In this document: positions 26,084 through 46,528 of the stretch, piece after piece | Layout: each line of letters begins with the position of its first letter | How positions within the stretch are numbered: the stretch's first letter is position 1 | Source of the DNA: Gammaproteobacteria bacterium | GTDB lineage: Bacteria; Pseudomonadota; Gammaproteobacteria; UBA4575 | DNA length: 64,000 nucleotides | Reading direction: 5' to 3' | Assembly: GCA_965243395.1 (NCBI GenBank) | Contig: CBDEUS010000001.1 | Coordinates: forward strand, 544,001-608,000 | Notes under the pieces: model-generated | Seen by the model: only the letters and a program-made list of their open reading frames with translations | The model's database searches: none | Told to the model about the DNA's origin: nothing | Program-made: the position numbers and the translations under genes

Positions 26084-26109
26084 AAACAATCGTTAAATTT
26101 GTCTTACTT

Positions 26110-27405: not shown

Positions 27406-27471
27406 TCTTTAGCACTTGGTTAAAATAATATTTTTACAACTGTATTAAGCAATGTTTTAGAGTACATTTAT

Positions 27472-28887
27472 TTAATTTTGAGCGACTATGTTGTAGAGCT
27501 CACCTTTGCTTTCGAGCCAAACCAATAGATCAAAATAGTTTCGTATGTTTTGAACATAGATCACGGGTTCATGTCCACGAGCATAACCAAAGCGTGTTTT
27601 TTCATACCACTTTTTGTTACTTAATAGTGGTAGATACTTTCTTACATCCAACCATAGATCAGGATTGTCTCCAGCTGATTGAGTAAGAATCCTTGCATCT
27701 TCAAGATGGCCAAAGCCAACATTATAGGCCGCCAGAGCCATCCAGGTGCGATCAGGCTCCGTAATGCGTGCGGGTATTTTCTCTCGCATAGATAAAAAAT
27801 ATTCTGTCCCGCCAATTACACTATTTTGTGGATCTACACGATTTTCAATTTTAAGTTGTTTTGCAGTATCGCGTGTCAGCATCATTAAACCTTTTACACC
27901 AGTAGGTGAAACTGCTTTCGAATTCCACAATGATTCTTGATAACTCACCGCTGCAAGAAAACGCCAATCTTGATCATACTCAACTGCCGCTTCTTTAAAG
28001 AGTCTTTCATACTTTGGGAGTCGTTCCCGAACATGCTTAAGGAAGGTGTGACTATCTATAGGTGTAATGTCGTTTACATGGCCAAAATATTTATCTCTTA
28101 AGTGATTAAGAGTTCCATCGCCTTCTATTTGGTTGAAAAACTTATTTATAGCTTTTTGTAATGATGTGTCATCAGATTTCTTGAATGCCCATGCTAATGA
28201 CTGTTCTGGCCCAAAATTGAAACCAATTCTTAAATTTGGAAAGTATCTTCGAGTGACTGCAAACTCAGTTGAGTCTGTGATCGTGTAATCAATTAAGTTA
28301 TCCGCAGTAAGTAACATTAACTCTTCGGTTGATAGGTCTGGGTATTCTTTCCAATCTAACCTTGGGAAAAACTCTTTGTGGTCAAGTAGCATTTGGGCGT
28401 GGGTGCTACCTTCGACTACTGCTATTGATTTATCCTGTAAATCATTAATTGACTTGGGTTTTTTCTTATCTACTCTGTAGGCTATTTGAGATACTACTTT
28501 AATGTATTCAGGACCAAAATCTACATAAGCCTCACGTTGTTTAGTATGAGTAATCCCAGCGGCACCAATGTGGGCTTCTCCATCCACAATGCTCGGTAAA
28601 ATCTGATGGAATTCATTTTGAATCACAATTTCCAGCTCAACCCCAAGATAATCAGCAAACTGTTTTGCTAGCTCATACTCAATTCCAGTAGGGCCATTGG
28701 GTCCTATGAAATAAGTAGTAGGGCCATTGCGTGTAACTACAATTAATTTATTGGCGCGTTTTATTTCATGAAGGATAGACGTGGTATATTGTTTATTAAC
28801 AACAACAAGCGCACCTAATATAAATACAGCAAAAATAAAAACACTAATTTTTTGCAATCTAGATTTCATTATTAAATTCAATGACAT
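27472..28887 (-). CDS. mltF: membrane-bound lytic murein transglycosylase F
   Basis: N-terminal SBP_bac_3 domain (G.EYELA..FA) plus SLT domain YQES.W..A.SPTGV.GLMMLT, AAYNVG.GH. Confidence 0.93.
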   Translation of the reverse strand: MSLNLIMKSRLQKISVFIFAVFILGALVVVNKQYTTSILHEIKRANKLIVVTRNGPTTYFIGPNGPTGIEYELAKQFADYLGVELEIVIQNEFHQILPSIVDGEAHIGAAGITHTKQREAYVDFGPEYIKVVSQIAYRVDKKKPKSINDLQDKSIAVVEGSTHAQMLLDHKEFFPRLDWKEYPDLSTEELMLLTADNLIDYTITDSTEFAVTRRYFPNLRIGFNFGPEQSLAWAFKKSDDTSLQKAINKFFNQIEGDGTLNHLRDKYFGHVNDITPIDSHTFLKHVRERLPKYERLFKEAAVEYDQDWRFLAAVSYQESLWNSKAVSPTGVKGLMMLTRDTAKQLKIENRVDPQNSVIGGTEYFLSMREKIPARITEPDRTWMALAAYNVGFGHLEDARILTQSAGDNPDLWLDVRKYLPLLSNKKWYEKTRFGYARGHEPVIYVQNIRNYFDLLVWLESKGELYNIVAQN

Positions 28888-29290
28888 TCTTAATTATTAT
28901 ATTAGATGATTAATTCCAACTTGAGTTCGGTAGATCATGTGTGAATACAGAGAGCGCTGTAACATGCTTTACAAGTGTGCATCAATTTGCAGGAAAACTG
29001 TAATGAAATTTTCTATTTCTAAATAAAAAATTTATACAAACTAGTACAAGTGGCTGCAGTGTATTTAGAGTAATTAGTTAAGCAGTAACGCTAAATAACT
29101 ATTCTTTAGTGATTAAATGTAGGAATTGTTCAGAAAATTAAAGTTTTTCACTTAATTTTTGTTTTCGGCGGTTTGTAATTTTAATTAAAACCTTAGTCTG
29201 TATACCGTAGTCTTTAAAAAAGGCAGCACGGAGATTTTAGCGATTGATAACTAACTAGTAGTGAAAGAGTTTATAGATCATTACAAGCCA

Positions 29291-29315
29291 AAATATTTGA
29301 TAATTTCAAATATTT
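29291..29315. promoter_or_regulatory. perfect 10-bp inverted repeat, candidate operator in the mltF/ThDP-gene divergent region
   Basis: AAATATTTGA-TAATT-TCAAATATTT. Confidence 0.35.
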
Positions 29316-29599
29316 ATCTTGAGTATTACTTTAAAGTCCATCTCGCTAACTAAGTGACTATGCATGCTATAAAAATTTACTAAATATCATTAAGTTACGA
29401 AATAACTTGAGAAATTGTAAATAAACCTATGTTAAATACATGTAAATTGTTGTAATTTCTTATATAACAATGAGAAATAAATGTGTATTTTTTTTGAATA
29501 GTTGTCTATCGAGACAATCTCAAGAACCTACCAACTACAAACTCAAGTAGTCTAATAAAAATAATAATCACAAAGCCTGCTTAGCATTAGAAGAGAGAG

Positions 29600-31519
29600 A
29601 TGGCTGTAAAGGGAGAAGATAATAATACTGCTTCATTAATCGATGTTGTTACTGAGGATGATGATGCTTTAGAGCAAGCATTGGGTGAAGTAATAGACTT
29701 ACCTACGGCTAATGATTCACAAGCTTTTGGTGTTTCTAAAAGCATTTCTAGTGAATCCTATGAAGTGGGTGATCTACTTGTATCTTACTTAGAGCAAATT
29801 GGTGTGGAATATGTTTTTGGTATTCCAGGTGGTGCTATTGAACCTTTATATAATGCACTTGCGCGTAGTGAGCGACGAGGTGGAGCAAAATCTGTTGTAG
29901 CACGCCATGAAACAGGCGCAGCTTTTATGGCTGATGGTTATTCACGTAATAGTGGAAATTTAGGCGTGTGCTGTGCAACCGCAGGACCTGGAGCAACAAA
30001 CTTAATAACAGGTGTTGCATCGGCTTATGATAATCATTCGCCAATGTTGGTGATTACTGCCCAAACTGCAATTGAAAATTTTGGTCGTAATGCCGCACAA
30101 GAGTCAGCAGATACAGGAATCAATACTGTTGCAATGTTTGAGCATTGTACGCACTACAGCACTTTAGTTTCGCATATAAATCAATTCGAACAGAAGCTCG
30201 CATCGGCGATTATGACTGCATTTCGTTCTCCAATGGGCCCAGCACATTTGAGTATTCCACTTGATGTTTTAAGGCATGTGAGTCCTGCAGAGTATCCTTC
30301 TTATGACCTTGCTAGTTTATTGTGGCAGCCTAGTCCAATTGATATGGACAGTTTTAATATTTTCTGTGGTGAGCTCGCATCATCTGAAAACTTAGTTTTC
30401 ATTATTGGTGAAGGGTGTTCGCAGGGAATTGGCTCGATATTAAGCACAGCACTAAAGTTCAATGCCAAAATAGTAACAACGCCACATGCAAAAGGCTTGG
30501 TAAGCCCATACCATCCTTTGTTCCGCGGGGTACTGGGTTTTGCAGGTCATGAAAGTGCAATTGAAGCAATCGATGGTAATGTAGATACTATTGTTGCTAT
30601 CGGAACAACATTGAGTGAAACCGCAAGTAATACTTGGGATCAAAAAGTATTAAATCAAAAATTAATACATATAGATTCGTCCGAAGATAATTTAATGCAC
30701 TCACCCATGGCACGCCTGCATGTCAGAGGCGATATTGCAAAAATCTTTGAAAGTGTAGAAGAAAAATTTAATATCTCTAAACCGACTAATTCTGATAGTC
30801 GTATTATGAGTCCTGAAACAAATTCAAAAAAAGCCTCGTCCAAAGAAAAAAACTTAAAACATCATTTTGTTATGAATGATGTGGAAAAGTGTCGCGATAA
30901 TTCCATTCCATTGAAACCTCAGAGATTGATGCAGCTTCTGCCAAAGATATTTCCACCCGAAACAAAATATCTTTGTGACTCAGGGAATAGTATGGCTTGG
31001 TCAATCCACTATCTCCATCCATACGATAGAAGACTTGCGGGGTCGAGAGACGAGAGTGGTGGTTTATTCTGGACATGTTTGGAATTTGGTTCTATGGGAT
31101 GGGCAATTGGTTCATCCATTGGTACTGCGCTTGCAAATAGAAAAAACCCTGTCGCGTGTCTTACTGGGGATGGCTCAATGCTAATGTATGGCGGGGAGAT
31201 TACTGTTGCACTACAAGAAAAACTACCTGTCGTTTTTATAATACTCAATGATTCGGAATATGGAATGGTCAAGCATGGTCAAAGATTAGGTCATGCTGAA
31301 AGGGTAGGGTATTCGCTACCAAGAATTAATTTTGTTGAATATGCCCAATCTATGGGGATGAATGCCTGTCATATTAGTTCTGTAGCAGACCTGGAGAATT
31401 TAGATGTAAAAGAATTAATTGCTAATGGCCCAGCAATTTTAGATGTAGCTATTGATAAGGAAGAAGTGCCTCCTATAAATAGTAGACTTAAAGCATTAGG
31501 CACTATCCACGAAGACTGA
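29600..31519 (+). CDS. thiamine-diphosphate-dependent enzyme (acetolactate-synthase-like, probable acyloin synthase)
   Basis: FGIPGG, RHETGAAFMADG, GPGATN, GDGS...ND ThDP motif; no small subunit nearby; acidic N-terminal extension. Confidence 0.88.
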   Translation: MAVKGEDNNTASLIDVVTEDDDALEQALGEVIDLPTANDSQAFGVSKSISSESYEVGDLLVSYLEQIGVEYVFGIPGGAIEPLYNALARSERRGGAKSVVARHETGAAFMADGYSRNSGNLGVCCATAGPGATNLITGVASAYDNHSPMLVITAQTAIENFGRNAAQESADTGINTVAMFEHCTHYSTLVSHINQFEQKLASAIMTAFRSPMGPAHLSIPLDVLRHVSPAEYPSYDLASLLWQPSPIDMDSFNIFCGELASSENLVFIIGEGCSQGIGSILSTALKFNAKIVTTPHAKGLVSPYHPLFRGVLGFAGHESAIEAIDGNVDTIVAIGTTLSETASNTWDQKVLNQKLIHIDSSEDNLMHSPMARLHVRGDIAKIFESVEEKFNISKPTNSDSRIMSPETNSKKASSKEKNLKHHFVMNDVEKCRDNSIPLKPQRLMQLLPKIFPPETKYLCDSGNSMAWSIHYLHPYDRRLAGSRDESGGLFWTCLEFGSMGWAIGSSIGTALANRKNPVACLTGDGSMLMYGGEITVALQEKLPVVFIILNDSEYGMVKHGQRLGHAERVGYSLPRINFVEYAQSMGMNACHISSVADLENLDVKELIANGPAILDVAIDKEEVPPINSRLKALGTIHED

Positions 31520-31620
31520 GAAATTCTTAGTAATTATCCTTTGCCAATAATTCTATTGGCTATAATAATAAAGTATTTGCAACCCATACTTAGTGACGTA
31601 TCGGTAAATAAATTGTAACG

Positions 31621-32463
31621 ATGACTACTGCTGATAAAGATAAACAAGAAGTTATACATTCAAAAATCTGGAATGAGGATCCAGAGCCAGATAATCCTTT
31701 CGCAGCAAAAAAATGTTATTGCGCAGGATATGATGTATACGGAGACTTGTTAGGAAAAGCGAGTTGGGTGGAATATTTGTTTCTCTTGTTTAAACTTGAA
31801 AAACCAACAGAGGAGCAAGCAAAGTTGCTTGAAACTATTGCGATTGCAATCGCCAATCCAGGGATTCGTGATCATAGTGTTCGTGCAGCTATGAATGCGG
31901 GTGTTGGTGGTTCCACTGCAGCCTCTGCACTGATGGCTGCACTAGCTGTAGGTGCCGGACAGTATGGGGGTGCCAGGGAAGTTTTTTTGGTAATGGAGTT
32001 ATGGGAAAAATGTGAGCAAGACATGCAAAAATGGGAGCATGAACTTTTAAATCCTAAAGTTGATGAGCGTGCAGATATCTGGTTGCCAACAGAACATTAT
32101 CCAGGCTTTGATCCAAACGGTGTTACTTGTCCAACACCTGTTCAACAAACTTTAGACACTATATCTAATTTAACAAAATCCGACTCCAATTCTAATTGGC
32201 TAAAAGAAAATAAAAACAATTTAGAAAAACTAACCAAGAATCCAATTACTTTTTCTATGATCGTTGCAACAGTATTTACCGATCTTGAATTATTAAGTGA
32301 TCAGGGTGAAATGTTATATCTACTTTTAAGGCTACCGGGTGCTGGAGTGCATGCATTAGAGCAGAAAGAGTATGGTTGGAGAAAATATCCTTTTTTTACT
32401 GACGGTTTGCAAATAGAGAGTGTTGATTCTCAACAAGTCAAAGAAGAGTCTGATAATGAATAA
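31621..32463 (+). CDS. citrate-synthase-fold (citryl-CoA-lyase-like) protein 1, atypical active site
   Basis: GYDVYGDLLG, SVRAA, A..AAL...AG.YGGA, PGF, RLPG..VHA.EQ fit the short CS/CCL fold. Confidence 0.65.
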   Translation: MTTADKDKQEVIHSKIWNEDPEPDNPFAAKKCYCAGYDVYGDLLGKASWVEYLFLLFKLEKPTEEQAKLLETIAIAIANPGIRDHSVRAAMNAGVGGSTAASALMAALAVGAGQYGGAREVFLVMELWEKCEQDMQKWEHELLNPKVDERADIWLPTEHYPGFDPNGVTCPTPVQQTLDTISNLTKSDSNSNWLKENKNNLEKLTKNPITFSMIVATVFTDLELLSDQGEMLYLLLRLPGAGVHALEQKEYGWRKYPFFTDGLQIESVDSQQVKEESDNE

Positions 32464-33253
32464 TAAAACATTACTAGATTATGAGGATAGATGGATCACT
32501 TCTATGGGTGGTTCTGTTCCTGGAGAGAATGTGAAACTTCGAGGTAAAGATTTACTCAATGACTTTCAAAGTAATAGTTGGATGCAAATCCTGTTATTTG
32601 GCATAACTGGAAGAATGTATGGTAAAAAAGAGTGTGAGCTATTTGAAGCAATTTGGAGTATTTCAACAAGCTATCCAGAACCAAGAGTATGGAACAATAG
32701 AGTCTCTTCACTTGCCGCAACTGTCAGAACTACGGGTAATCTTGGTATTGCTGCAGGAATTGCAGTTTCGGAAGCTGAAGTATATGGACAAGGACCAATG
32801 GTATGGGTAATGAGCTTCTTACTTAGGGCTCATGAAAAATATACAAAAGGAAATACTCTTGATGATGTTATAAAAAGTGAACTCAATAATTACAATCGTA
32901 TATATGGATTTGGAAGACCGATTGCTAATGATGATGAACGTATTATTCCGTTAATGGAAACAGCGCGAAAATTAGGTTTTTCAGATGGTAAATACACACA
33001 ATTACTATTAGAAATTAAAGATAAATTAAAACACGGTCCAAGAAAGTTAGAAATGAATATTGCTGCACTTGATGCCGCTTTGTGCGCAGACCAAGGATTT
33101 AGTATAAGAGAATTTTATTATTTTATGAGCCTATGTTTTTCTGCCGGAATTATATTTTGTAATATTGATGGTCATGATAAAGATGAAGGCACATTCTTTC
33201 CCTTTCGTTGTAACCGAATTGCATATGATGGCACAGGTATACGCGAGTGGTAA
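32456..33253 (+). CDS. citrate-synthase-fold protein 2, atypical active site
   Basis: LRGKDL, IYGFGRP...D.R, MNIA; ATG overlaps the upstream stop (ATGAATAA). Confidence 0.62.
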   Translation: MNNKTLLDYEDRWITSMGGSVPGENVKLRGKDLLNDFQSNSWMQILLFGITGRMYGKKECELFEAIWSISTSYPEPRVWNNRVSSLAATVRTTGNLGIAAGIAVSEAEVYGQGPMVWVMSFLLRAHEKYTKGNTLDDVIKSELNNYNRIYGFGRPIANDDERIIPLMETARKLGFSDGKYTQLLLEIKDKLKHGPRKLEMNIAALDAALCADQGFSIREFYYFMSLCFSAGIIFCNIDGHDKDEGTFFPFRCNRIAYDGTGIREW

Positions 33254-33294
33254 ATTATTAATAGAAATTTATATTAAAAAGCTAGTAGAGAAAA

Positions 33295-34326
33295 ATGGAA
33301 AAAATTCGTGATTTAGAAGTGCCAGATATAGATGACATAAAAGTTTGGGATGTTATTGCTGGATTGTATGGATATCAAGGTTTTCTTTTTGCATATGACA
33401 TTGGTTTATTTTCCTATTTGAATGATGGTCCTAAAACATTTACTGAAATAACAGAGAGATTGAAACTAGAAAAGCGACCGACTGAAGCACTGCTTAGCAC
33501 TTGTGTGAGATTGGAATTTATTAAAATTAATAAATTATCTTCTATAAATAAATATGAGTTAACCGAAGTTTCAAAGTATTACTTAGTTAAGTCTAGTCCT
33601 TTCTTTTTTGGCGCCGCATTTGACTTAGCGGTCAATAATTTCATAGCCTACAATGATGTAAAAAAAGCCATGTTAACAAATAAACCAACTGCTTATGATG
33701 GAAAAGATATTTTCGAAACGCATGAGAAACAAGAAGAACTAGCAAAAAATTTCACGATAGCAATGCACAGTGCCAGCATGGCCCCTGCACTATGTTGGCC
33801 AAAAAAAATAGATTTGTCTCAATATTCTAAATTTCTTGATATTGGCGGAGGGTCTGGCGCTCATACAATTGGTGCATTGTCAAAATGGGAAAACCTTTCT
33901 GGAATTGTTTTAGATCTTGGACCTGTGTGTGAAGTTTGTGAAGAAATTTTAGCTAAATCAAGTCTGGACAATCGTGCAAAAACCCATACTGGCGATTTCT
34001 GGGAATGCGAATTTCCCGATGCTGATGTGCATTTTTATTCACAGATATTTCACGATTGGGGGTTTGAAAAGTGTGAATATCTAGCGGAGAAAAGCTTTAA
34101 AGCTTTACCTAAAAATGGGAAAATTATTATTCATGAAATATTAATGAATAACGACATGTCTGGGCCGTTTATGGCATCTGCATTAAGTATTTCTATGCTT
34201 GCTTGGACTGAAGGGAAACAATATTCAGGCCTTGAGCTATCTAATATGCTAGATAAATCAGGTTTTAGATCAGTCGAAATAATTCCAACATTTGGATACT
34301 GGAGTATTGTAGTAGGTACTAAATAA
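33295..34326 (+). CDS. SAM-dependent small-molecule O-methyltransferase (family 2, with dimerisation domain)
   Basis: LDIGGGSG, GDFW, IFHDW, TEG motifs. Confidence 0.88.
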   Translation: MEKIRDLEVPDIDDIKVWDVIAGLYGYQGFLFAYDIGLFSYLNDGPKTFTEITERLKLEKRPTEALLSTCVRLEFIKINKLSSINKYELTEVSKYYLVKSSPFFFGAAFDLAVNNFIAYNDVKKAMLTNKPTAYDGKDIFETHEKQEELAKNFTIAMHSASMAPALCWPKKIDLSQYSKFLDIGGGSGAHTIGALSKWENLSGIVLDLGPVCEVCEEILAKSSLDNRAKTHTGDFWECEFPDADVHFYSQIFHDWGFEKCEYLAEKSFKALPKNGKIIIHEILMNNDMSGPFMASALSISMLAWTEGKQYSGLELSNMLDKSGFRSVEIIPTFGYWSIVVGTK

Positions 34327-34605
34327 CTCCCAATATCTTCACCGTAATAATTAATATAAAAATTTTTTTGTCGCGCCACTTGTCTTCAAAAAACTACCTT
34401 TCAGTATGAAGTTGGTTTGATCCGCGGTATCAATCATCCGATACAAGTTGTCATTATTGTTCACGTAACTCCTTAAAATAAGGTGCATTAATAAGTATTT
34501 TCGCTTGCTGTGCGAGGTTGATACTCGCCCAAATACAATTTTCTATCCTCATGGTGATGAGTAAGTGAAGGGAATAACTTATGTACGACATCAAGGAGTG
34601 TCAAC

Positions 34606-36693
34606 ATGAAACATTTTATATTTTTAAATTATAAACTCTTTTTATTAAATTTTATTTTTCTTTTTACTATTTCAACAAATGTGTATTCTGATTTTGATGA
34701 AGAGGAAGCACTCATTGAACTTTATGGTGACGAAGAAGTTATTAGTATAGCAACAGGTAGTGCACAACCCATTTCTCGTGCTCCTGCTGTAGCATCAGTA
34801 ATTACTGCGAAAGATATAAAGGAAATAGGCGCAACAGATATCGATGAAGTTCTGGAAACCGTTCCAGGTTTGCATGTTTCAAGGCGCGCATTGGGATATC
34901 TACCTGTTTATACGTTTCGTGGCGTATTTAGTTCTGTGAATCCTCAGGTGTTAATGCTTGTGAATGGAATCTCAATCAATAATTTATTTGTTGGTGATAG
35001 AAACCAGGCATGGGGTGGTTTCCCAGTTGAATCAATTTCGCGAATTGAGGTGATACGTGGACCTGGCTCAGCCGTTTACGGTGCTGACGCTGTTGCAGGT
35101 GTAATTAATATCATCACTAAAGAAGCATCAGAAATTGATGGGTTTGAATTTGGTTCACGTTTGGGAAGTTTTGACACGCGAGATGCATGGGCTTTATATG
35201 GTGGAGAAGTAGGGGGTTTTGATGTGGCATTTTCTGCCGAGTTTCGTGATACCGACGGACAGGATGAAGATATAAATGTCGATGCCGCAACAATTCAAGG
35301 TACTTCTTTAGCGCCAGGTTCTGTAAATACAGGCACACAAAATTTCGATACACGTTTAAGCGTTACAAAAAATAATTGGAAGTTTCGTGCGGGCCTGCAA
35401 AAGCGAGATGATAATGAAACAGGTGCAGGGCTTGCGGAGGCATTAGACCCAAATGGAGAATTTAAGAGTGATCGCTGGAATGCAGATATAACTTACCACA
35501 ATCCAACATTTAGAAATGATTTAGATGTAACAGCACAAATTAGCTATTTAAATACTTCTCAAGAAGTAGCAGAGGATCTGCTTTTGTTTCCTCCTGGCTC
35601 ATTTCTACCGGGACCCGTGGGGCCATTTCCAGAAGGAATAATTGGTAACCCCGAAGTTTGGGAACGACACTGGCGTTATAATTTAACTGGAGTGTTTACT
35701 GGTTTTAGTGATCATACGATACGTACTGGAATTGGCTACACGCATCAAGATATTTACAAAGTAGAAGAAGAGAATAATTTTAGTCCTTTGGGATTTGGCG
35801 TATTAACCGATGTAAGTGATACACCATTTGTTTTTCTTCCCGAAAAACATCGCAATAATAGTTTTGCTTTCTTACAAGATGTTTGGCAAATAAGTAATGA
35901 TTGGGAATTAACTGCAGGACTGCGTTACGACGACTACAATGATTTTGGAGATACATGGAATCCACGTGCAGCACTTGTTTGGGCAGCACGACATGACTTA
36001 ACAGCAAAGCTTTTGTATGGCGAAGCATTTCGTGCGCCTTCTTTTGCAGAGTTTCGTAATCAAAATAATCCAGTAGCGTTAGGTAACGATGACCTCGATC
36101 CTGAGGAAATGGAAACCATCGAGTTAGCGTTTGACTATAGACCTAAAGATAATCTCAAGCTTGGTTTAAATTTGTTCCGCTATGAGTGGGACGACATCAT
36201 TCGATTTAATGATATAGGTGGAGGATTATTCCAGGCTGAAAATGTCGGCGAGCAAGAAGGCTATGGTTTTGAATTTGAATTTGATTGGAGAGTGTCTAGA
36301 ACACTAAATATCTTAGGTAACTTTGCGCACCAAAATTCTGAAGATAAATCTATAGATGAAGATGCAGGTCAGGCACCTGAAAACCAGTTTTATGTTCGAA
36401 CAGATTGGGAATTTAAACCTGGTTGGCATATTTCTCCTCAGTGGAATTTTGTGATGGATAGAGAACGTGTGGACAGCGATACGCGAAGCGACATTGATGA
36501 TTACGATATTTTTGATGTTACATTAAGAACAAATGCATTTAGCAACCGTTGGGAATTAGCTGTTTCAGCGAGAAACTTGTTTAACAAGCGTGCATTTGAA
36601 CCAAGTCAAAATAGTGCGTTCGGTGCTGCAATTCCTGGTGACTTACCGTTAGCCCGAAGAAGCGTTTGGGGAGAGCTAAGATTTAATTATTGA
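34606..36693 (+). CDS. TonB-dependent outer-membrane receptor
   Basis: Signal peptide, plug motif RIEVIRGPGSAVYGADA..GVINIIT, aromatic C-terminus. Confidence 0.93.
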   Translation: MKHFIFLNYKLFLLNFIFLFTISTNVYSDFDEEEALIELYGDEEVISIATGSAQPISRAPAVASVITAKDIKEIGATDIDEVLETVPGLHVSRRALGYLPVYTFRGVFSSVNPQVLMLVNGISINNLFVGDRNQAWGGFPVESISRIEVIRGPGSAVYGADAVAGVINIITKEASEIDGFEFGSRLGSFDTRDAWALYGGEVGGFDVAFSAEFRDTDGQDEDINVDAATIQGTSLAPGSVNTGTQNFDTRLSVTKNNWKFRAGLQKRDDNETGAGLAEALDPNGEFKSDRWNADITYHNPTFRNDLDVTAQISYLNTSQEVAEDLLLFPPGSFLPGPVGPFPEGIIGNPEVWERHWRYNLTGVFTGFSDHTIRTGIGYTHQDIYKVEEENNFSPLGFGVLTDVSDTPFVFLPEKHRNNSFAFLQDVWQISNDWELTAGLRYDDYNDFGDTWNPRAALVWAARHDLTAKLLYGEAFRAPSFAEFRNQNNPVALGNDDLDPEEMETIELAFDYRPKDNLKLGLNLFRYEWDDIIRFNDIGGGLFQAENVGEQEGYGFEFEFDWRVSRTLNILGNFAHQNSEDKSIDEDAGQAPENQFYVRTDWEFKPGWHISPQWNFVMDRERVDSDTRSDIDDYDIFDVTLRTNAFSNRWELAVSARNLFNKRAFEPSQNSAFGAAIPGDLPLARRSVWGELRFNY

Positions 36694-36735
36694 TCATATA
36701 TAAAAAGTAAATTTTGGATTACTTTGATTTGATTA

Positions 36736-37716
36736 GTGATTACAAAATTGAATAACGCTCGAATCAGTTCGCCATTAACATTTCTGCGTAGCATACAAAA
36801 AGCTATGTTGTGCTTTTTGGTGTTTGCAATATTTCTATCATTTCCAAGTTTTGCAACTACGCCCTCTGTTGCAGTGATCTATCCAGAGTTACGCGCTCCT
36901 TACAACAAGATTTATGATGATATTGCAGCAGGAGTGGAAACAAAAGTTAACGGTCGCACTATGCGATTTAAGCTAACTAAAAATTATTCTCCCAGCCAAT
37001 TAAACGATTGGGTAGCAAGAAATAATATAAAAGTGTGTGTTGCACTGGGGAAAGGCGGTGAAAAGGCGATTGGGCAATTAACGCATGATATTCCTGTTGT
37101 GCTTAGTGGTGTAATAAAGCCAAAGTCACCGATTTATGGCGGCATTTCTTTGGCTGCATCACCAAAAAAATTATTCACAGAATTAAAAAAACAAAATTCA
37201 AAAATCAAAAAAGTTATTGTTGTCTACAATCCTAAAAAATCAGAATGGCTTATTAGACAAGCACAATCTGATGCTGTACAAAAAAATTTACAACTAGTCA
37301 CCTATATGACCACGAGTCTTTCAGAGTCAGCAAAAATCTATCGGGAAATTTTTTCTAGAGAAGACATAACAAGTTCGGCGATTTGGCTTCCGCCTGACAC
37401 AACATCCGTGGATAAAAAAACTATTTTATCTTTTATTCTTGAGCAGTCATGGGCAAAAAATGTAACTGTATTTTCAAGCAGCCCCGCACATGTTAACAAA
37501 GGTGTTTTGTTTGCCATGTATCCTGATAACAAAAAATTAGGAGAAAGTCTGGGAGCATATGCATTAGATAAACTTAATGGTGGTTCAGGGTTAAACAAGA
37601 TGGTTCCGGTTGAAGACTTGAAAATTGCTTTTAACAAACGAACTGCAGAACACTTAGGTATTAAATTTAGAAGTGATGATTTGCGTCGATATGATGCAGT
37701 CTTTCCATCAAAGTAA
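36736..37716 (+). CDS. periplasmic ABC-type substrate-binding-like protein with no cognate permease
   Basis: Signal peptide, VVYNP, AIWLPPD, N.RTAEHLGI pattern (ABC_sub_bind-like); the start may be ATG 36805. Confidence 0.7.
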   Translation: MITKLNNARISSPLTFLRSIQKAMLCFLVFAIFLSFPSFATTPSVAVIYPELRAPYNKIYDDIAAGVETKVNGRTMRFKLTKNYSPSQLNDWVARNNIKVCVALGKGGEKAIGQLTHDIPVVLSGVIKPKSPIYGGISLAASPKKLFTELKKQNSKIKKVIVVYNPKKSEWLIRQAQSDAVQKNLQLVTYMTTSLSESAKIYREIFSREDITSSAIWLPPDTTSVDKKTILSFILEQSWAKNVTVFSSSPAHVNKGVLFAMYPDNKKLGESLGAYALDKLNGGSGLNKMVPVEDLKIAFNKRTAEHLGIKFRSDDLRRYDAVFPSK

Positions 37717-37721
37717 TTGCA

Positions 37722-40700
37722 ATGAATCCATTTAAATTATTTAAACAGTTTTATACAAGTGGTTTTAAAGAACAGCTTGTGACTGCCTTTTTGATTGGAA
37801 TTTTCATTACAGCTGCATTATCTACTTTCTTAATAACATTTTTGACTTCTAAGAAGGTAGAAGAGAAGGTTGAAAGTGAAGGTTTTCAAATTACTCGAGA
37901 TTTTGCAGAGCGAAACACATTGGCATTATTGTACTTGAGTGAAGAAAGCGCAAAAGAAAATGTTGAAGCCATTAAGAATTTCCAAGATGTTAAAGGCGCG
38001 GCGGTGTTTGATCTACAAAGGAAAGCGCTCATAGAAGATGGTGAAAACACATTCCCTGAAGAAGGGGAGCAGTGGCCTGCAGATATAAAACTGATTTCAG
38101 AAACATATGGAGCTTGGTATTTCGTTTCGCCTGTTTATGCGAGTGGTACTGACCCAGATATTGCAGAATCTCCTTTTATTGAAGAGGTTCAAGAACGCGA
38201 ACTATTAGGATATGTGCGTGTGCAAATGAGTAAAGATAGTTTGCATGCTCTTGAGGCTACAATTTTAAAGATAAACATAATGATTTCTTTAATGCTGTCT
38301 GTGATTTTGGCATTTGTATTATGGAAGACTACTGATCGAGTCATTAAACCTTTAAAGCAACTAGCAGGATTCATGCGTGAAGCCGAAGAGGGCAATATGG
38401 GTATACGCTCTGAGTTATGGGGGCCCAGAGATATCACGATGATGCAGAATGCTTTTAATACCATGATTAAAGCATTAGGTGATCGTGAACATAATTTAGA
38501 AAGCGCTCGTCAATCAGCCCTTCAATATGCTCATGCAAAAGGAGAATTTGCAGCCAATGTGAGTCATGAACTACGTACTCCTTTAAACGGGATTATCGGA
38601 ATGCTTGATATTCTCAAAGGGACTGAACTTAGCGCTAAGCAAAAAGAATATGTAAATGTTGCGCAAGATTCTGGTGATGCTTTACTTAGCTTGATTGATG
38701 ATGTGCTTAATTTTTCTCGAATGGAATCTGGGAAAGTTGAAATTCAACATGAGCAGTTTAATTTACGTGAGATGTTAGACGACATTGTTGGTATTTTAAC
38801 TGGTCATGCTTCTTCAAAAGATTTAGATATTGCCTACATCATTGATAAAGATGTACCAAGTCATCTTAAGGGTGACGTGAGTCGAATTCGTCAATTACTC
38901 ATTAACCTGGGTGGTAATGCAGTCAAGTTTACGGAACATGGTGAGATTGGCTTCAGAGTACATAGAGTTCCTGTGCAGGGCGAGCATTTAGTTTTGCGAT
39001 TTGATGTAACAGATACGGGTGTAGGAATATCTGATGATGCACAAAATAAAATATTTGATGCATTTCAACAGGCAGATGCATCCACAACCAAGAAGTTTGG
39101 AGGCACTGGGTTAGGTCTCGCAATATGCAAACAGTTAGTTGAATCTATGCGTGGTGTAATAGGTGTTGAAAGTGAAGCAGGAAAAGGCAGTACATTTTGG
39201 TTTGAGATTCCGTTTAAAGAAATGCCAGCAAAAGTTGACACATTTAGCATTAGACACTCAACGGCATCCGGATTACGCATATTTATTGTTGATGACAGTG
39301 AAATGGTGCGTGCAAATCTCAAACAAACTTTCGAGGAATGGGGTTCATTTGTTGAATGCGCAGAAAACGGTAATCAAGCCATAGAAGTATTGCATACTGC
39401 CAGCGAACATCAGAAACCATTTGATGTGGCATTTATAGATGAATTGATGGGTGATACTAATGGCATAGAATTGATTCGTTCAATTACCAAAGATTCAAAC
39501 ATTTCGCCTATGAAATTAGTATTAATGACCAATCAGATTAATCCTGAGGCATTTGTTGAACGTTTTAGGGAAATTGATGCATATGTCAAAAAACCATTGC
39601 GTCAATCGAGTGTATTTAATTGCATTGCAGATTTAATCAACATGCCTGTACTGCAACACACCGATAAAAAAGATATTGCTCCCGGAGCAACAGATATTCC
39701 AGACTTTAATTCAACCATATTGATTGTTGAAGATAACCGCGCTAACCAACAAGTTGCACAAGCAATGTTAGAAAGACTTGGTTGTAAATGTTCAATTGCA
39801 GGCAATGGAATAGAAGCATTAAAACTCCTAGAGCTTGCTAAATATGATGCAATTTTTATGGATTGCAATATGCCAGAAATGGATGGTTATGAAACTACAA
39901 ATAAAATTCGACAGTTAACTGGAGAAGTTTCACAAATTCCTATTATTGCAATGACTGCAAATGTGCTCAAAGGTGATCGTGAAAAATGTATTCAAGCAGG
40001 CATGAATGATTATACAAAGAAGCCTTTAAAGATTGAAAAATTAATAGAAAAACTTAGCCGTTGGATAGAAGTTGAGCCAATAGAAAACATTTTGGGCATG
40101 GAGTCTGACACTGATGTTCAACTAAGCATGATTAATCAAGCTACTTTAATCGACACGGCTGAGCACGAATCAATAGATAGAGGAGCAATAGAGACATTGC
40201 GAGAGAATGTGGGTGAGGGCTTCAACGATATGGTTCAGGTTTATATTGATGACATGGAAATTTTGCTGAGGTCACTTGAGAAAAGTGTGCAAGAAAAAGA
40301 TCCAAATTCTCTGCGTCATTATGCGCACAGTATAAAAGGTAGTAGTTCTAACTTTGGTGCTGCGAGATTAGTGCATATAGCTAAACAAATAGAAGCGATA
40401 GGAAAAGATGATTCTGTAGAAGGAGCGCATGAATTAGTTCAGGCTATATTCCCTCAAGCAGCATTTGTAATTAGTGAATTAAGAAAAGAAATTAATTTAA
40501 CTAAAGAAGATACCTTGCTGATGCAGAAAAGCACTGAAAAGATTTTAATAGCAGACGATGATCGAAGCATGCGTGTTGCTTTACAAAACGTCTTGGCTAC
40601 TGATGGTTATGAGATTGAATCTGTATCGGATGGTGTTGAAGCAGTGAAACGTTGTGAGCAAGGTATGCCGGGGTTAATACTTTTAGATGCTTTAATGCCT

Positions 40701-42242
40701 AACTTAAATGGATTTGATGCTTGCAAAAAAATTCGCATGCTTAAAGGCGGTAAACATGTACCGATTCTAATTGTTACTGCATTAGATGATGATAGCTCCA
40801 TTGAAGAAGCATTTAATTCTGGTGCGACTGATTTTATTCCGAAGCCAGTACATTTTGCGGTAATGAGACAAAGAGTTTCACGGTTGTTAAAAGCGAGTCG
40901 CGCAGAAGTACACGTTCGCGAGCTGGCCTATAATGATTCGCTAACAGGTCTACCAAATCGAACCATGTTCATTGATCAAATGAACAAACTAATCAGAAAA
41001 GTGCGTCCACAAGCACATATGCTTGCTGTGCTATTTTTAGATTTAGATCGTTTTAAATATGTTAACGACTCATTAGGTCATAACGTTGGTGATAAGTTAT
41101 TAAAACAAGTAGCTGAAAGAATATTAAGTTGTGTACGTTCTGTAGATACTGTTGCGCGTTTAGGTGGCGATGAATTCACTTTAGCATTAGATGGTATAGA
41201 GGATAAAACTGTAGTGGCAAATATTGCAGATAAGATTTGTCGTAGAGTCGGAGAGCCTTATTCTTTCTCAGGAAAAGAAATTTATGTGTCAGCAAGTATT
41301 GGTATCTCGCTACATCCTGATGATGGTGAGGATATTGGTGAATTAATGAAACGCGCAGATACTGCAATGTTTAAAGCTAAGGAGCATGGTGGAAGCTACT
41401 TATTTTATGAACCTGAAATGGAAGCAGTTGTTACAAACAAAGTAGAAATTGAGCAAGATTTACGTCATTGCTTAGATAGAGAAGAACTAGATGTCTTCTA
41501 TCAACCAAAATTAAACTTACAAACGCGCAAAGTGGCGGGACTTGAGGCGCTGGTTCGATGGAATCACCCAGATAAAGGTGAAGTAGGCCCCAATGATTTT
41601 ATTCCATTAGCAGAAGAGACTGGTTTAATTTCAGAACTTGGTTTGTGGGTATTGATCAGTTCTTGTGTGCAAATGCAATCTTGGATTGATAAAGGTCACG
41701 AACCTGTTCCAGTTTCAGTGAATCTTTCAGGGAGACAACTTGAAAATGGCGATATTGCATCACAAGTTGCGCATGTTTTAGCAGAATCAGGATTAAAGCC
41801 AGAGTATTTAGAGCTAGAAATAACCGAGAGTATTATTATGAAAAGACCTGAAGAGGTCATTTCAATACTTCATCAACTTAAAGCCATGGGAGTAAAACTT
41901 TCTATTGATGATTTTGGAACTGGATATTCATCATTAAACTATCTGCGCAAATTCCCCATTGATTTACTGAAGATTGATAAGGCTTTTGTTCGAGATATAG
42001 AATCCAATAAAGAAGATCGATTAATCGTTAAAGGAATCATTGCTCTGGCAAAGAGTTTGAATCTCGAAGTATTGGCGGAAGGGGTTGAGACTGCCGAGCA
42101 GCAAAATTTCCTTGAGCAGGAGGGTTGCGACTATATCCAGGGGTTTTATATCGGCAAACCGATGAAAAGCTCAGAATTTGAACAAGAATTTATACTTTCC
42201 AACCGAAGCAATATCAAACTGCTTTCTAACTATCGTAAATAA
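37722..42242 (+). CDS. hybrid sensor kinase / c-di-GMP enzyme: TM-sensor-HAMP-HisKA-HATPase-REC-REC-HPt-REC-GGDEF-EAL
   Basis: [26 protein letters not shown], three REC Asp sites (FIDE, FMDC, LLDA), [36 protein letters not shown]. Confidence 0.93.
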
Positions 42243-42745
42243 TAGTTGGCTGAAATTTGGCCGACTAATATTATTTTTACAGTATTTTTCTAAATTGAGC
42301 TGAAATTTTGCGTTTAGGTAGCAGTTAACCATTAATTTAATAAGGTTAATTGCTTAATTTGTGATACTTCTTGCACATTTAATATACAATTTTCAGCATA
42401 TACTCACAAAAATCCCAAATTCAATTTTTACGTTATTTCGAATTTAAGCCATAATAATTTGCTTACACAAATGCTTGCAAAGTATTGGTTTGCTAGTGTA
42501 GTTTAGCGGTCTTATCTAATACTGCTTATTAGGCGCTCAGCTACTTGGCGGTATAACAATAAATATAAGAAAGCTGACACACTTTAACTAAAATTATTTA
42601 AACTAGGCACTGGTAGTGGGGTTTTGAACCGTGTTCAAAACTAGTTAGTAGTCACGATAACTGCGAGACTAATAACACTAATAGAAAATAACTATAATTT
42701 AATACCAGTAATCAGATGGAGCGAATAGGGGTTTGAATTTTTAGC

Positions 42746-44626
42746 ATGGATACATTTCCTAGTCTTTTTTCACAACAAATCAGGACACGACCAAACGACC
42801 CATCGATTCGTTATAAGCGATATGGATTATGGAAAACGTGGAGTTGGGGAGAAGTTGGTGAAAACGTAGAAAGTTTTGCATGTGGTTTAGCGTCCCACGG
42901 TCTCAAGCCAAATGAAAACGTAGCAATAATTGGTAACAACATTCCTCAACTATATTTCGGAATGCTTGCAGTGCAATGTTTAGGTGCAGTTCCGGTACCT
43001 ATTCACCCAGATTCAAATGCTGAAGAGCTTGTTTATGCGTTAAACAAATGTGGAGCGAAATTGGCTTTAGTGCAAGATCAGCAACAAGTAGATGGATGCT
43101 ATGAGATAAAAGATCAATGCCCCAGTTTTGAACAAATGATTTATTGTGATGGACGTGGGATGCAAGAGTACCAATCCTCACGTTTGCATAAAGTAGAGGA
43201 TGTGCAAGAAGCTGGAAGAAAATTTGCGAGTGAGCATCCAACGTTTTTAGATGATATTCGTGATAAAACTTCACACGATTCTAGTGCTTTTATTCTATTT
43301 ACGGCAGGTACTACTGATAAACCACGTGGTGTCATTCATACACATGAAAGTTTAATTGGTACGGCTACAGCCTTTGCAGATCAAGAAAAAATTCAGCAGG
43401 ATGATGAATCATTAGCCTTTATGCCTCTCTCTTATGCAGCAAATATTTTATTTACTTATTCGCTTTGGTTGTTGAAAGGCCTCACAATCAGTTGTCCTGA
43501 GAACAATGAAACGGTGATGGTAGATTTTCGTGAAATTGGACCAACCATTGCATATGCACCGCCTCATTTTTATAAACAACTTTATTCTGAAATTACTGCA
43601 AGAGCACAACGGTCTAACGCTAAGTCCTTTGATAAGTGGTTTGGGTATGCGCGTAAATCCCGTGAAAAAGTATTAGATGGTGGTCAACAAAGTGGCGGCT
43701 TGAATTCGCTACAAGCAAATTTATTGATGTTTGCACCTCTCAAAAATGTATATGGCTTATCTAAACTCCGCCAAGCTTATACAGGTGGAGATGTTATCAG
43801 TAGTGAGGTGTTTAACTTTTTCCGTGGAATTGGCGTTAATCTAAAAAAATGTTACGGAACCACTGAAAGTGCGGGTTTCATTTGTGTACAAAATACTGCA
43901 CAGGCTGATTCACGGTCTGGTGAAAATAGTATGGGTGTTCCATTGTCAGGTGTAGAAGTAAAAGAGCTTGAAGATGGTGAACTGGCTTTTAAAGGAGTAA
44001 ATACTTTTAAAGAATACATAAATGATCCTGCTGCCACATCAGCTGTCAGAACTGCTGACGGATGGGTTCGCACAGGTGATGTTGGTGAAGTCGATAGTAA
44101 TGGTGTCGTAAAAGTAACAGATAGAACTGATTCTGTCGGCAAATTCACATCCGGCAGTTTATTTGCACCACACCGTATTGAAAGCGAGTTGAAATCATCC
44201 CCTTACATTAAAGAAGCGGTTGCACTAGGTGAAGGTCAAGAATCTATAGCGACATTTATTGTAATAGATGATATTACGGTTGGAAGCTGGGCAGAAGCAA
44301 ACAATATACGCTTTACAGGCTATGCAGATCTAGCAACTAAAGACGAAGTATATAATCTCGTCAAAGAGCATGTTGATAGTGTTAATGCAAAAATAAAAGA
44401 TATATGTGGTGATGCATGCCCACCAATTTCTCGTTTTTTGCTTATGCATCGCGAATTCAATGTTGATTCTGGTGAAGTCACGCGATCGCATAAAATTAGA
44501 CGTGATGTAGTTATGGGTCGTCATCAAACTCTTGTAGATGCGTTGTATTCATCGCAACAAAAAGTTGAATTAAGAGATGATGCAAGTGGAGAAACCATTG
44601 CAGAATTAAAACTAGAATCTGCGTAA
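42746..44626 (+). CDS. AMP-binding long-chain acyl-CoA synthetase-like protein
   Basis: FTAGTTDKPRG (degenerate A3 loop), YGTTE, RTGD.G, IE..LKSSPYIKEA, C-terminal TR..KIRR. Confidence 0.82.
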   Translation: MDTFPSLFSQQIRTRPNDPSIRYKRYGLWKTWSWGEVGENVESFACGLASHGLKPNENVAIIGNNIPQLYFGMLAVQCLGAVPVPIHPDSNAEELVYALNKCGAKLALVQDQQQVDGCYEIKDQCPSFEQMIYCDGRGMQEYQSSRLHKVEDVQEAGRKFASEHPTFLDDIRDKTSHDSSAFILFTAGTTDKPRGVIHTHESLIGTATAFADQEKIQQDDESLAFMPLSYAANILFTYSLWLLKGLTISCPENNETVMVDFREIGPTIAYAPPHFYKQLYSEITARAQRSNAKSFDKWFGYARKSREKVLDGGQQSGGLNSLQANLLMFAPLKNVYGLSKLRQAYTGGDVISSEVFNFFRGIGVNLKKCYGTTESAGFICVQNTAQADSRSGENSMGVPLSGVEVKELEDGELAFKGVNTFKEYINDPAATSAVRTADGWVRTGDVGEVDSNGVVKVTDRTDSVGKFTSGSLFAPHRIESELKSSPYIKEAVALGEGQESIATFIVIDDITVGSWAEANNIRFTGYADLATKDEVYNLVKEHVDSVNAKIKDICGDACPPISRFLLMHREFNVDSGEVTRSHKIRRDVVMGRHQTLVDALYSSQQKVELRDDASGETIAELKLESA

Positions 44627-44677
44627 ATTTGAATTAAAGAATTATAGAAACTGAAAAGAAGCAAGTGAGAACAATAA

Positions 44678-45466
44678 GTGAGTAATGGAGCGAACGGCAA
44701 AGAGCCACATATGATAATCGAGAACATCGATTTGGCTTTTGGTGGCACAAAGGCGATTACAGATATTAGTTTTACTGTATACAAAGGAGAAATTTGTGCA
44801 GTGATCGGTCCAAATGGAGCAGGGAAAAGCTCAATGTTGAATGTTATTAATGGTGTTTACATTCCCCAGCAAGGCTCAATCACATTTGAGGGTAAAAAGT
44901 TTAGAAAAATGAAGCCTCACTCAGCTGCGGTAATGGGGATTGGACGAACTTTCCAAAACATTGCTCTGTTTTCAGGCATGAGTGTGGTTGAAAACATCAT
45001 GACTGGCCGGAACTTGATGATGAGATCTACCTGGGTTGAAAATGCATTGGGTATTGGCAGATGTAAGCGAGAAGAGCTCGAACATAGAGAAGCATGTGAA
45101 GAAATTATTGAATTTTTAGGTTTGCAGTCCATACGTAAAACTCAAGTGTCTGCATTGTCCTATGGTTTGCAAAAACGAGTTGAACTTGGTCGTGCTTTAG
45201 CTGCAGAGCCCAAAATGTTATTACTTGATGAACCTATTGCCGGTATGAATATAGATGAAAAATTAGATATGGCATGTTTCATACAAGAAGTTAACTATAA
45301 TCGTGGTACAACAATTGTTTTAATTGAGCATGATATGGGTGTGGTGATGGATATTTCTGATCACGTTGTCGTAATGGACTATGGCGCAAAAATTGGTGAT
45401 GGCACACCTGAAGAAGTGAAGAATGATCAAAAAGTGATTGATGCTTACTTAGGCGTAAGTCACTAA
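44678..45466 (+). CDS. HAAT/Liv-type ABC transporter ATP-binding protein (LivG-like)
   Basis: GPNGAGKS, RTFQN, LSYG.QKRVE, LLLDEP, EHDM. Confidence 0.92.
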   Translation: MSNGANGKEPHMIIENIDLAFGGTKAITDISFTVYKGEICAVIGPNGAGKSSMLNVINGVYIPQQGSITFEGKKFRKMKPHSAAVMGIGRTFQNIALFSGMSVVENIMTGRNLMMRSTWVENALGIGRCKREELEHREACEEIIEFLGLQSIRKTQVSALSYGLQKRVELGRALAAEPKMLLLDEPIAGMNIDEKLDMACFIQEVNYNRGTTIVLIEHDMGVVMDISDHVVVMDYGAKIGDGTPEEVKNDQKVIDAYLGVSH

Positions 45467-45490
45467 ATGCGAATGCGGAGGAGTTTTTAA

Positions 45491-46489: not shown

Positions 46490-46528
46490 TATAAGAATAA
46501 TATAAAGAAAACTAACTAGAGAAAGTTA

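Follow-up and report, generated by a model that had tools for sequence, protein, structure and literature searches.

TonB-dependent signalling of the FecA/FpvA type relies on an outer-membrane receptor with an N-terminal signalling domain and on an anti-sigma/extracytoplasmic function (ECF) sigma factor pair. In the ScrABC system of Vibrio parahaemolyticus, the S-signal produced by ScrA is captured in the periplasm by ScrB, which in its loaded form switches ScrC from a cyclase to a phosphodiesterase (bioRxiv 10.1101/2024.04.02.587679; PMC8050422). In the LuxP-LuxQ and TorT-TorS pairs, an orphan binding-protein gene adjoins the gene of a hybrid kinase with a periplasmic domain and a phosphorelay (PMC8050422), a feature shared with the locus described here. 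This locus comprises seven genes on the plus strand of a 64,000-nucleotide stretch from a gammaproteobacterium (assembly GCA_965243395.1, contig CBDEUS010000001.1, positions 544,001 to 608,000), hereafter called the window, and coordinates below are those of the window. A preliminary description of the window had read the genes as a small-molecule synthase cassette next to a sensing module, with the link between the two halves resting on adjacency. The seven genes and the elements bordering them are listed below.

29384..29530, plus strand: conserved non-coding block 70-215 nt upstream of the start of the gene that follows, a candidate promoter/operator by predicted function
29600..31519, plus strand: thiamine diphosphate (ThDP)-dependent carboligase of the acetolactate synthase (ALS) superfamily, 639 amino acids (aa), Pfam TPP_enzyme_N/M/C
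31621..32463, plus strand: citrate-synthase-fold (CS-fold) protein A (CSA), 280 aa, non-canonical relative of citryl-CoA lyase with a weak Citrate_synt match
32456..33253 (ATG 32456; open reading frame open from GTG 32420), plus strand: CS-fold protein B (CSB), 265 aa, identified by NCBIfam and PDB 6hxp matches
33295..34326, plus strand: class-2 S-adenosylmethionine (SAM) O-methyltransferase, 343 aa, Pfam Methyltransf_2 and Dimerisation
34606..36693, plus strand: TonB-dependent outer-membrane receptor, 695 aa, Pfam Plug and TonB barrel
36736..37716, plus strand: orphan periplasmic binding protein of Pfam family PF04392 (ABC_sub_bind), 326 aa
37722..42242, plus strand: hybrid sensor kinase, 1506 aa, HAMP-HisKA-HATPase-3xREC-Hpt-GGDEF-EAL (Pfam)
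42243..42267, plus strand: intrinsic-terminator-like hairpin with an 11-bp stem and a T-rich tail, directly 3' of the kinase stop

An open reading frame (ORF) check of the window confirmed the seven plus-strand ORFs between 29600 and 42242, and the Pfam, NCBIfam and PDB matches agree with the co-directional gene content that had been claimed for them. The gap between the methyltransferase and TonB receptor genes measures 279 nt (34327-34605), exactly the length given earlier.

Comparison across genomes showed that six of these genes, namely those of the ThDP enzyme, CSA, CSB, the TonB receptor, the binding protein and the sensor kinase, form one selected unit, a six-gene core operon conserved in Gammaproteobacteria. 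This linkage of the two halves is the strongest result of the analysis, and the specific chemistry proposed earlier is the weakest part of the picture. CSA was aligned with 17 relatives, and a scan over one genome per species gave 366 genome loci encoding a CSA relative, of which the best 80 were taken with 10 kb on each side (labelled L001 and so on). All synteny counts given here cover these 80 loci closest to the window, the remaining 286 lying outside the sample. Gene presence was scored by tblastn with the window proteins, counting loci with enough DNA on the relevant side, and all ORFs of the 81 sources (the 80 loci and the window) were clustered into families.

In nearly every locus that is long enough, the genes run in the order ThDP enzyme, CSA, CSB, TonB receptor, binding protein, sensor kinase. 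The ThDP gene lies upstream of CSA in 71 of 72 loci, and CSB follows CSA in all 71 loci that could be scored. Downstream, the TonB receptor is present in 58 of 59 loci (the sole miss is L066), the binding protein in 52 of 57 (absent from L014, L053, L056, L063 and L066), and the N-terminal sensor of the kinase in 52 of 54 (absent from L056 and L066). Only the six families of this block are widely shared among the 81 sources; the next largest, tadA and mltF, occur in 14 sources each. The block is found in at least eight different flanking contexts, and a recurrence of the same arrangement across 80 related loci with differing flanks is far more than chance would produce.

The genes are also tightly packed. 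Using the longest ORFs, median gaps are 2 nt between the ThDP gene and CSA, 2 nt between CSA and CSB, 5 nt between CSB and the receptor, 42.5 nt between receptor and binding protein, and 6 nt between binding protein and kinase (n = 46), and the CSB-receptor gap is at most 50 nt in 35 of 54 loci. Adjacency is retained even where genes have been rearranged, with the receptor inverted in L053, L056, L063 and L080 and the binding protein and kinase inverted together in L009, L034, L046 and L073. The neighbourhood comparison that the preliminary description had set beforehand as its check therefore came out in its favour: genes for the ThDP enzyme, CSA and CSB repeatedly adjoin those for receptor, binding protein and kinase, the halves are not unlinked, and a connection that formerly rested on one adjacency is now carried by the near-constant presence of the receptor behind the CS-fold pair.

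The boundaries of the block fit a single operon. The hairpin at 42243-42267 is the strongest terminator-like site within 28700-42900, and no such site lies in an intergenic gap within 29600-42242, where the plus-strand sites are all inside coding sequence. At the other end, the block at 29384-29530 shows long runs of invariant columns when aligned with five relatives, themselves about 75-93% identical to the window in coding sequence, and it contains small palindromes (inverted repeats) at 29446-29478. Rfam models found no riboswitch in the window, nor did the 731 bases ahead of the ThDP gene give a match when E-values up to 1 were allowed. The arrangement of a ScrABC-type operon, with an enzyme, a binding protein and a cyclic di-GMP (c-di-GMP) enzyme in one operon ahead of one terminator, is thus present in the window.

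By record title, carriers of the block include Porticoccus/Porticoccaceae, the SAR92 clade, Cycloclasticus, Methylococcaceae, Crenotrichaceae, Sedimenticola, Thiohalobacter, Thiogranum, Chromatiales, Ectothiorhodospiraceae, Hahellaceae, Oleiphilaceae and many unclassified Gammaproteobacteria. At least one cultured, non-pathogenic carrier, SAR92 clade bacterium H231 (L052), has an intact operon. The CSB family comprises 790, 398 and 154 representative clusters (50% identity) at E-values of up to 1e-3, 1e-10 and 1e-30, respectively.

The O-methyltransferase, whose best PDB match is 5i2h, is an accessory, lineage-specific addition and not part of the core, being found in 8 of the 80 loci. Its place is behind CSB in L001, L004, L005, L012 and L013, and between the receptor and binding-protein genes in L007, L008 and L039. 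Its position inside the sensing half in these three loci again speaks for a single unit made up of both halves. The methylated product proposed earlier is weakened, since with so few loci carrying the gene, methylation would be a lineage-specific decoration.

The sensing half begins with a receptor in which Pfam recognizes a Plug domain (residues 57-166) and a barrel (241-658). No STN or other N-terminal signalling domain was found by Pfam, no NCBIfam cutoff was reached, and sigma or anti-sigma genes are not among the conserved neighbours in the 80 loci. Its PDB relatives CirA, PirA, BtuB and FepA are matched mostly through the plug, so that this similarity says little about the ligand. The binding protein matches PF04392 with 44 bits and the TrpX model with 43 bits against a cutoff of 390, and has no PDB sequence match. 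It starts at a GTG (an alternative ATG lies at 36805) and has a hydrophobic N-terminus.

No family of ATP-binding cassette (ABC) permeases or ATPases is conserved beside the binding-protein gene in the 81 sources. The earlier statement that the binding protein comes without permease or ATPase holds for the conserved block, and the only transporter nearby, a Liv-type cluster downstream, has a Peripla_BP_6 binding protein of its own. In the window the gene stands 5 nt before that of the kinase, which has a predicted periplasmic domain between two transmembrane (TM) segments, and the two genes are neighbours in most loci. The pairing of an orphan binding protein with a sensor, as put forward in the preliminary description, fits sensors of the LuxP/LuxQ or ScrB/ScrC type, where adjoining genes without a transporter encode a binding protein and its membrane partner.

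The kinase is predicted to consist of a TM segment (19-41), an sCache_4 domain (46-175), a second TM segment (181-201), HAMP, HisKA with H282, HATPase, two receivers (REC 520-629 and 661-785), Hpt with H869, a third receiver (REC 940-1056), GGDEF at 1148 with its RxxD site at 1139, and EAL at 1275 with DDFGTG at 1396. The TM segments were read from the sequence as hydrophobic stretches. The sCache_4 (PF09984) match scores 22.7 bits against a cutoff of 22.1 in the window, and 45 of 52 relatives have such a match as well. Intact H-box, Hpt His, GGDEF, RxxD, EAL and DDFGTG motifs are present, and judged by them the protein carries a complete His282-Asp-His869-Asp relay on one chain that ends in GGDEF-EAL.

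A match reaching the EAL domain was found downstream in 34 of the 45 loci long enough, in L056 on a separate REC-GGDEF-EAL protein, and four further matches to GGDEF-EAL lie on separate proteins just upstream of the ThDP gene (L009, L034, L046 and L073). The kinase is split in L009, L056 and L063, where separate REC-(PAS)-GGDEF-EAL proteins occur (REC-PAS-GGDEF-EAL in L009 by Pfam). The kinase match ends before the GGDEF in L015, L018, L022, L024 and L060, in L018 at the Hpt according to Pfam. The predicted output is thus mostly c-di-GMP, and it appears to persist when the kinase is split. Two groups of loci, L009/L034/L046/L069/L073 and L014/L018/L022/L024/L060, have chemosensory flanks (methyl-accepting chemotaxis protein, CheW, CheR, CheB and CheD) and a partner-switching set of STAS and REC-SpoIIE-kinase proteins. 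In the second of these groups the kinase stops at the Hpt and carries no GGDEF-EAL, as Pfam shows for L018. In the window, 55609-56723, about 13 kb downstream of the kinase, encodes a response regulator of the OmpR type and a stand-alone Hpt protein.

In the enzyme half, the ThDP enzyme has all three TPP domains, the cofactor-activating Glu and the GDG...N-D motif. All 66 relatives compared retain E104 and GDG523-525, all but one of them N550, and likewise all but one D551 (65 of 66 each), and because these cofactor residues are conserved the enzyme is expected to be active. Its scores lie under every NCBIfam cutoff, including those of the ALS models PRK08322 (268 against 509 bits) and TIGR00118 (267 against 538) and those for ScyA (234 against 1020) and ScyA-related proteins (256 against 1000). 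The ThDP gene has no ALS small-subunit (ACT-domain) gene next to it; the next genes encode the CS-fold proteins. By the curated cutoffs, the protein would be classed neither as an acetolactate synthase nor as ScyA.

The best PDB relatives, matched over residues 51-626, are BbmA (8x3x, 269 bits) and CsmA (8x3z, 259 bits), for which no function was found in the searchable literature and whose names are those of the depositors. The ThDP enzyme resembles these nearest solved relatives and the ScyA-type carboligases in its conserved cofactor motifs. It differs from them by an acidic N-terminal extension of about 50 aa (29600-29760) and a Ser/Lys-rich insert at about residues 395-445 (around 30780-30930), neither of which has a counterpart in BbmA, and by its unique partnership with CS-fold proteins.

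For the CS-fold proteins, assignment rests on sequence profiles. CSA reaches 18.8 bits with Pfam Citrate_synt (cutoff 27), CSB has no Pfam match, and the NCBIfam citryl-CoA lyase models (PRK06224) give 29-52 bits against cutoffs of 193-261. The only solved relative is the citryl-CoA lyase 6hxp, with profile E-values of 5e-10 for CSA and 3e-11 for CSB; the CSB profile also matches citrate synthases (E 2e-4 to 4e-3), and the protein-atlas neighbours of a stored CSA homologue are CS-fold clusters only. By these profile matches, CSA and CSB are homologous to the citrate-synthase fold. An hhalign comparison (95.8% probability, 19% identity) marks the two as distant paralogues. The genes overlap by 8 nt (ATGAATAA) if CSB starts at ATG 32456, and by 44 nt if it starts at the GTG; the ATG, which aligns with the starts of the relatives, is the more likely start.

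The His of HGGA, the His of GYGH and the Asp of NVD are the catalytic residues of citrate synthase. These motifs were read from the 6hxp alignments. In CSA, the HGGA His is replaced in 69 of 70 relatives (Leu in 43, Tyr in 17, Asn in 6, Phe in 3; His kept in one) and the NVD Asp by Ser (37) or Thr (31) in 68 of 70. In CSB, all 66 relatives have lost the HGGA His (Tyr in 61, Phe in 5), have Arg in place of the GYGH His, and have Ala, Ser, Thr or Gly in place of the NVD Asp. Acyl-CoA Claisen chemistry is doubtful because CSA and CSB are without the canonical His/His/Asp, and the same residues contradict the names citryl-CoA lyase and citrate synthase that public annotation gives to the CS-fold proteins. 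The earlier suggestion that the pair adds an acyl-CoA enolate to a ketone accordingly finds no backing in the sequences, and the butenolide or lactone product attached to it was pure speculation.

Each protein retains one carboxylate-binding Arg motif that its partner has lost. CSA keeps R-x-P-G-x-x-x-H-x-x-E (R237 in 67 of 70 relatives, H244 and E247 in 70 of 70), and CSB keeps the Arg of D-E-R, or D-P-R in the family (R174 in 66 of 66). Such complementarity hints at an obligate heteromer that forms a composite site. Conserved residues of the pair also include R83 and H159 in CSA and R166, D172, E173 and D224 in CSB. The pair thus shares with 6hxp the fold, the R-x-P-G-x-x-x-H motif (CSA) and the D-E-R Arg (CSB), and differs from it in lacking the catalytic residues, in consisting of heteromeric paralogues and in being tied to a ThDP enzyme.

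Natural fusions connect all three enzymes. Seven ThDP-CSA fusion proteins of 858-901 aa were found; in one of them, P0122, the ThDP enzyme is matched by residues 17-593 at 48% identity and CSA by residues 612-868 at 55%. A CSA-CSB fusion of 516 aa, P0180, has a CSA-like half (hhalign 99.7%) and a CSB-like half (E 8e-61). It was found by exhaustive profile search; a word-index search gave no longer protein with a fused CSB. These ThDP-CSA and CSA-CSB fusions support a physical association of the ThDP enzyme, CSA and CSB, and the three act as one cytoplasmic machine.

We propose that a metabolite made in the cell by this machine is taken up again by way of the TonB receptor and sensed in the periplasm, a reading that we hold tentatively and place just short of an even chance. 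The ThDP enzyme would join 2-oxo acids, possibly arylpyruvates, to an alpha-hydroxy-keto acid, and the CS-fold heteromer, which retains carboxylate-binding arginines, would bind and process the carboxylated intermediate. In the lineage of the window the product would be O-methylated. It would then exit the cell, and the dedicated TonB receptor would pump it through the outer membrane into the periplasm, where the binding protein would capture it and dock on the sCache_4 domain. The resulting shift in kinase activity would pass phosphate from His282 via Asp and His869 to the last REC domain, which would toggle the fused GGDEF-EAL module between synthesis and degradation of c-di-GMP. By analogy, the logic would be that of ScrABC extended by an outer-membrane gate and a phosphorelay.

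Several observations weigh against this proposal. Loss of the canonical His/His/Asp from both CS-fold proteins makes a non-catalytic role possible for the pair. Neither an exporter nor an inner-membrane importer is conserved in the block in the 81 sources, and in L066, a Nannocystis metagenome-assembled genome (MAG), the enzymes occur without receptor, binding protein and kinase. We know of no cell-cell signal system in which sensing proceeds via a dedicated TonB-dependent importer. Further points come from sequence divergence. The closest public relative of the window is the MAG contig L001, with which it shares 93% identity in the ThDP enzyme, 89% in the receptor, 85% in the binding protein and 94% in the kinase, as against 47% in CSB and 65% in the methyltransferase. 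CSB, the most variable gene of the block, thus varies while the binding protein stays steady, although the two should change together if CSB determined the ligand. Distances among 29 loci likewise correlate at r = 0.85-0.92 between the sensor-half proteins, and less well between sensor half and enzymes (0.69-0.78 for the ThDP enzyme, 0.63-0.73 for CSA and 0.50-0.59 for CSB). Finally, the three ligand-bound PF04392 structures hold Trp, Tyr or Phe (PMC10443332), and an external nutrient is therefore a plausible ligand.

The variable segment is a local hot spot of divergence. The nucleotide alignment with L001 is lost at 32776-33588, covering about residues 107-265 of CSB and the first 100 or so residues of the methyltransferase, and protein identity falls to 45% at the CSA C-terminus, 35-60% in CSB and 48-55% in the first 120 residues of the methyltransferase. 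CSB similarities are incongruent among close relatives, the L001 CSB for example being closest to that of L005. The hot spot could be a recombination tract or the result of diversifying selection. In the same mirror-tree comparison of 29 loci, the binding protein correlates with the sensor domain at r = 0.92 and with other parts of the kinase at 0.91-0.92; with all kinase parts followed to the same degree, the comparison gives no signal specific to contact with the sensor domain.

These points lend weight to an alternative that we judge rather unlikely. Receptor, binding protein and kinase may sense a scarce outside compound, such as an aromatic amino acid derivative or a metabolite of another organism, with the enzymes co-transcribed to consume, detoxify or answer it and not to make the ligand. 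TonB receptors usually import scarce external nutrients, the aromatic amino acids in the PF04392 structures would suit such a role, and the tighter co-variation within the sensor half and a binding protein that does not vary along with CSB and the methyltransferase would be accounted for. Yet no inner-membrane transporter that could carry the compound to the cytoplasmic enzymes is conserved, and the output is c-di-GMP or chemosensory and not a transcription factor inducing a catabolic pathway. Moreover, the enzyme genes precede the sensor genes within one tight operon, and the enzymes are therefore expressed with the sensor and not under its control.

An improbable alternative is that the enzymes make an alpha-hydroxy-carboxylate metal chelator that is re-imported as the metal complex, the binding protein and kinase reporting metal supply to c-di-GMP. 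Synthesis, release and re-import via a dedicated TonB receptor is the siderophore pattern, arginines that in citrate synthase bind carboxylates are retained by the CS-fold proteins, and the nearest solved receptors are transporters of catecholate siderophores and B12. The receptor similarity, however, lies mostly in the plug and has little bearing on the ligand, and the conserved families of the block include neither a siderophore synthetase nor a reductase, an exporter or an ABC importer. Nor does the regulation point to metal: no Fur box with three or fewer mismatches to the E. coli consensus occurs anywhere in the window, and Fur-like sites (at least 14 of 19 matches) are not enriched, being found upstream of the ThDP gene in 4 of 71 loci, against 3.2% in shuffles, and upstream of the receptor gene in 2 of 61, against 1.9% in shuffles. 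That the block is a chance meeting of a housekeeping acetolactate synthase and central-metabolism citryl-CoA lyases with an independent nutrient sensor, as the automatic public names of the CS-fold proteins and the ALS models heading the NCBIfam matches of the ThDP enzyme could be taken to say, is hardly credible, since every score is far under its curated cutoff, the CS-fold pair lacks the catalytic residues of both citrate synthase and citryl-CoA lyase, no gene for an ALS small subunit is present, natural fusions join the ThDP enzyme to CSA, and the synteny contradicts it with a block kept in at least eight genomic contexts at gaps of a few nucleotides.

A further-reaching version of the make, re-import and sense proposal appears doubtful to us. 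It holds that the block represents a new class of chemical communication, in which a TonB-imported signal made by a ThDP enzyme and a CS-fold heterodimer without the catalytic triad is passed from the PF04392 protein to an sCache_4 phosphorelay and on to c-di-GMP, the hyper-divergent CSB/methyltransferase segment giving strain-specific, pherotype-like variants in Porticoccaceae, the SAR92 clade, Cycloclasticus and methanotrophs.

Two neighbours of the block in the window were considered as members and rejected. The cytochrome P450 gene at 26110-27405 on the minus strand, beyond mltF, is absent from all 80 loci and a singleton among the 81 sources; by blastn, L001 lacks exactly 26062-27472, the P450 stretch inserted between tadA and mltF. 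Its best NCBIfam match is ApyO, a P450 of ribosomally synthesized and post-translationally modified peptide (RiPP) pathways, at 129 bits against a cutoff of 525. The preliminary description had kept the P450 as an optional partner of the cassette, which its absence from L001 and all other loci speaks against. Downstream, 42746-50094 encodes an acyl-CoA ligase and then the Liv-type ABC transporter (two ATPases, two permeases and Peripla_BP_6; ABC genes at 44678-50094). This transporter was rejected as a partner of the PF04392 protein, since it has its own binding protein and no more than 7 of 81 sources have the ligase gene behind that of the kinase. The ligase/Liv cluster follows the block only in the lineage of the window. 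Otherwise the surroundings are housekeeping genes: nuoMN, nusA-infB-rbfA-truB-rpsO-pnp, dksA, xseA, guaBA, tadA and mltF. The window is chromosomal DNA.

Individual loci show further peculiarities. Positions 1-9000 of L066 encode CSA, CSB and a ThDP enzyme 31% identical to that of the window, and the locus also has two tandem double CS-fold ORFs (507 and 576 aa), a LysR regulator and a second CSA-like gene, and resembles a natural-product cluster assembled from the same set of enzymes. The ThDP gene is spread over two or more frames in L004, L042, L067 and L071, by either sequencing error or pseudogene formation. L071 is the isolate genome of Porticoccus litoralis DSM 25064, where the frame changes between query residues 248 and 258. 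Two PF04392 genes are present in L015 (14413-15477 and 20413-20781), one after the receptor and the second, partial and at the contig end, upstream of an inverted kinase.

If the proposal of a self-made, re-imported and sensed metabolite is true, a widespread module with CSA relatives in 366 species-level genomes gains a function, that of controlling whether cells turn to a motile or a biofilm life in groups such as Porticoccaceae, the SAR92 clade, Cycloclasticus and Methylococcaceae. The enzymes would represent a new architecture for ThDP and citrate-synthase-fold biochemistry, the TonB-dependent receptor would feed a periplasmic sensor and not a sigma-factor cascade, and a concrete, testable route to a new signal molecule would be at hand. 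No description of this gene combination was found in the searchable literature, which excludes subscription journals and bioRxiv supplements, and the literature found for COG2984, ABC_sub_bind, sCache_4 and DUF2222 describes no such triad. Neither PF04392 nor sCache_4 appears in the pairs of Table 1 seen in the review of binding-protein-dependent sensors, and the word TonB occurs 0 times in that review (PMC8050422).

Among described systems, ScrABC also combines in one operon a signal-making enzyme, a periplasmic binding protein and a membrane GGDEF-EAL protein. ScrA, however, is an aminotransferase, ScrB belongs to SBP_bac_3, there is no TonB receptor, and ScrC has a dCache-like domain and neither kinase nor phosphorelay; a sequence relationship with the block was neither found nor expected. 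LuxP-LuxQ and TorT-TorS differ from the block by their Peripla_BP_4 and Peripla_BP_1 binding proteins and their LuxQ-periplasm and TorS sensor domains, by output to separate regulators, by a synthase outside the operon and by having no TonB receptor. In PruA-PruR-DcpA of Agrobacterium tumefaciens, the product of a cytoplasmic enzyme likewise controls a dual GGDEF-EAL protein via an adjacently encoded protein, but the chemistry is that of pterins, PruR is a predicted molybdopterin-binding protein, neither a kinase nor a TonB receptor takes part, and the enzyme gene is not described there as belonging to the same operon (PMC4488946). With the FecA/FpvA type, the block shares a TonB-dependent receptor at the head of what would be a signalling route for an outside compound; unlike that type, it has no signalling domain or sigma genes and would be read out in the periplasm by a binding protein and a kinase instead. 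Thus, make-and-sense, binding-protein-dependent c-di-GMP circuits are known in kind, and the conserved block described here builds on different protein families, with a TonB gate and a phosphorelay added.

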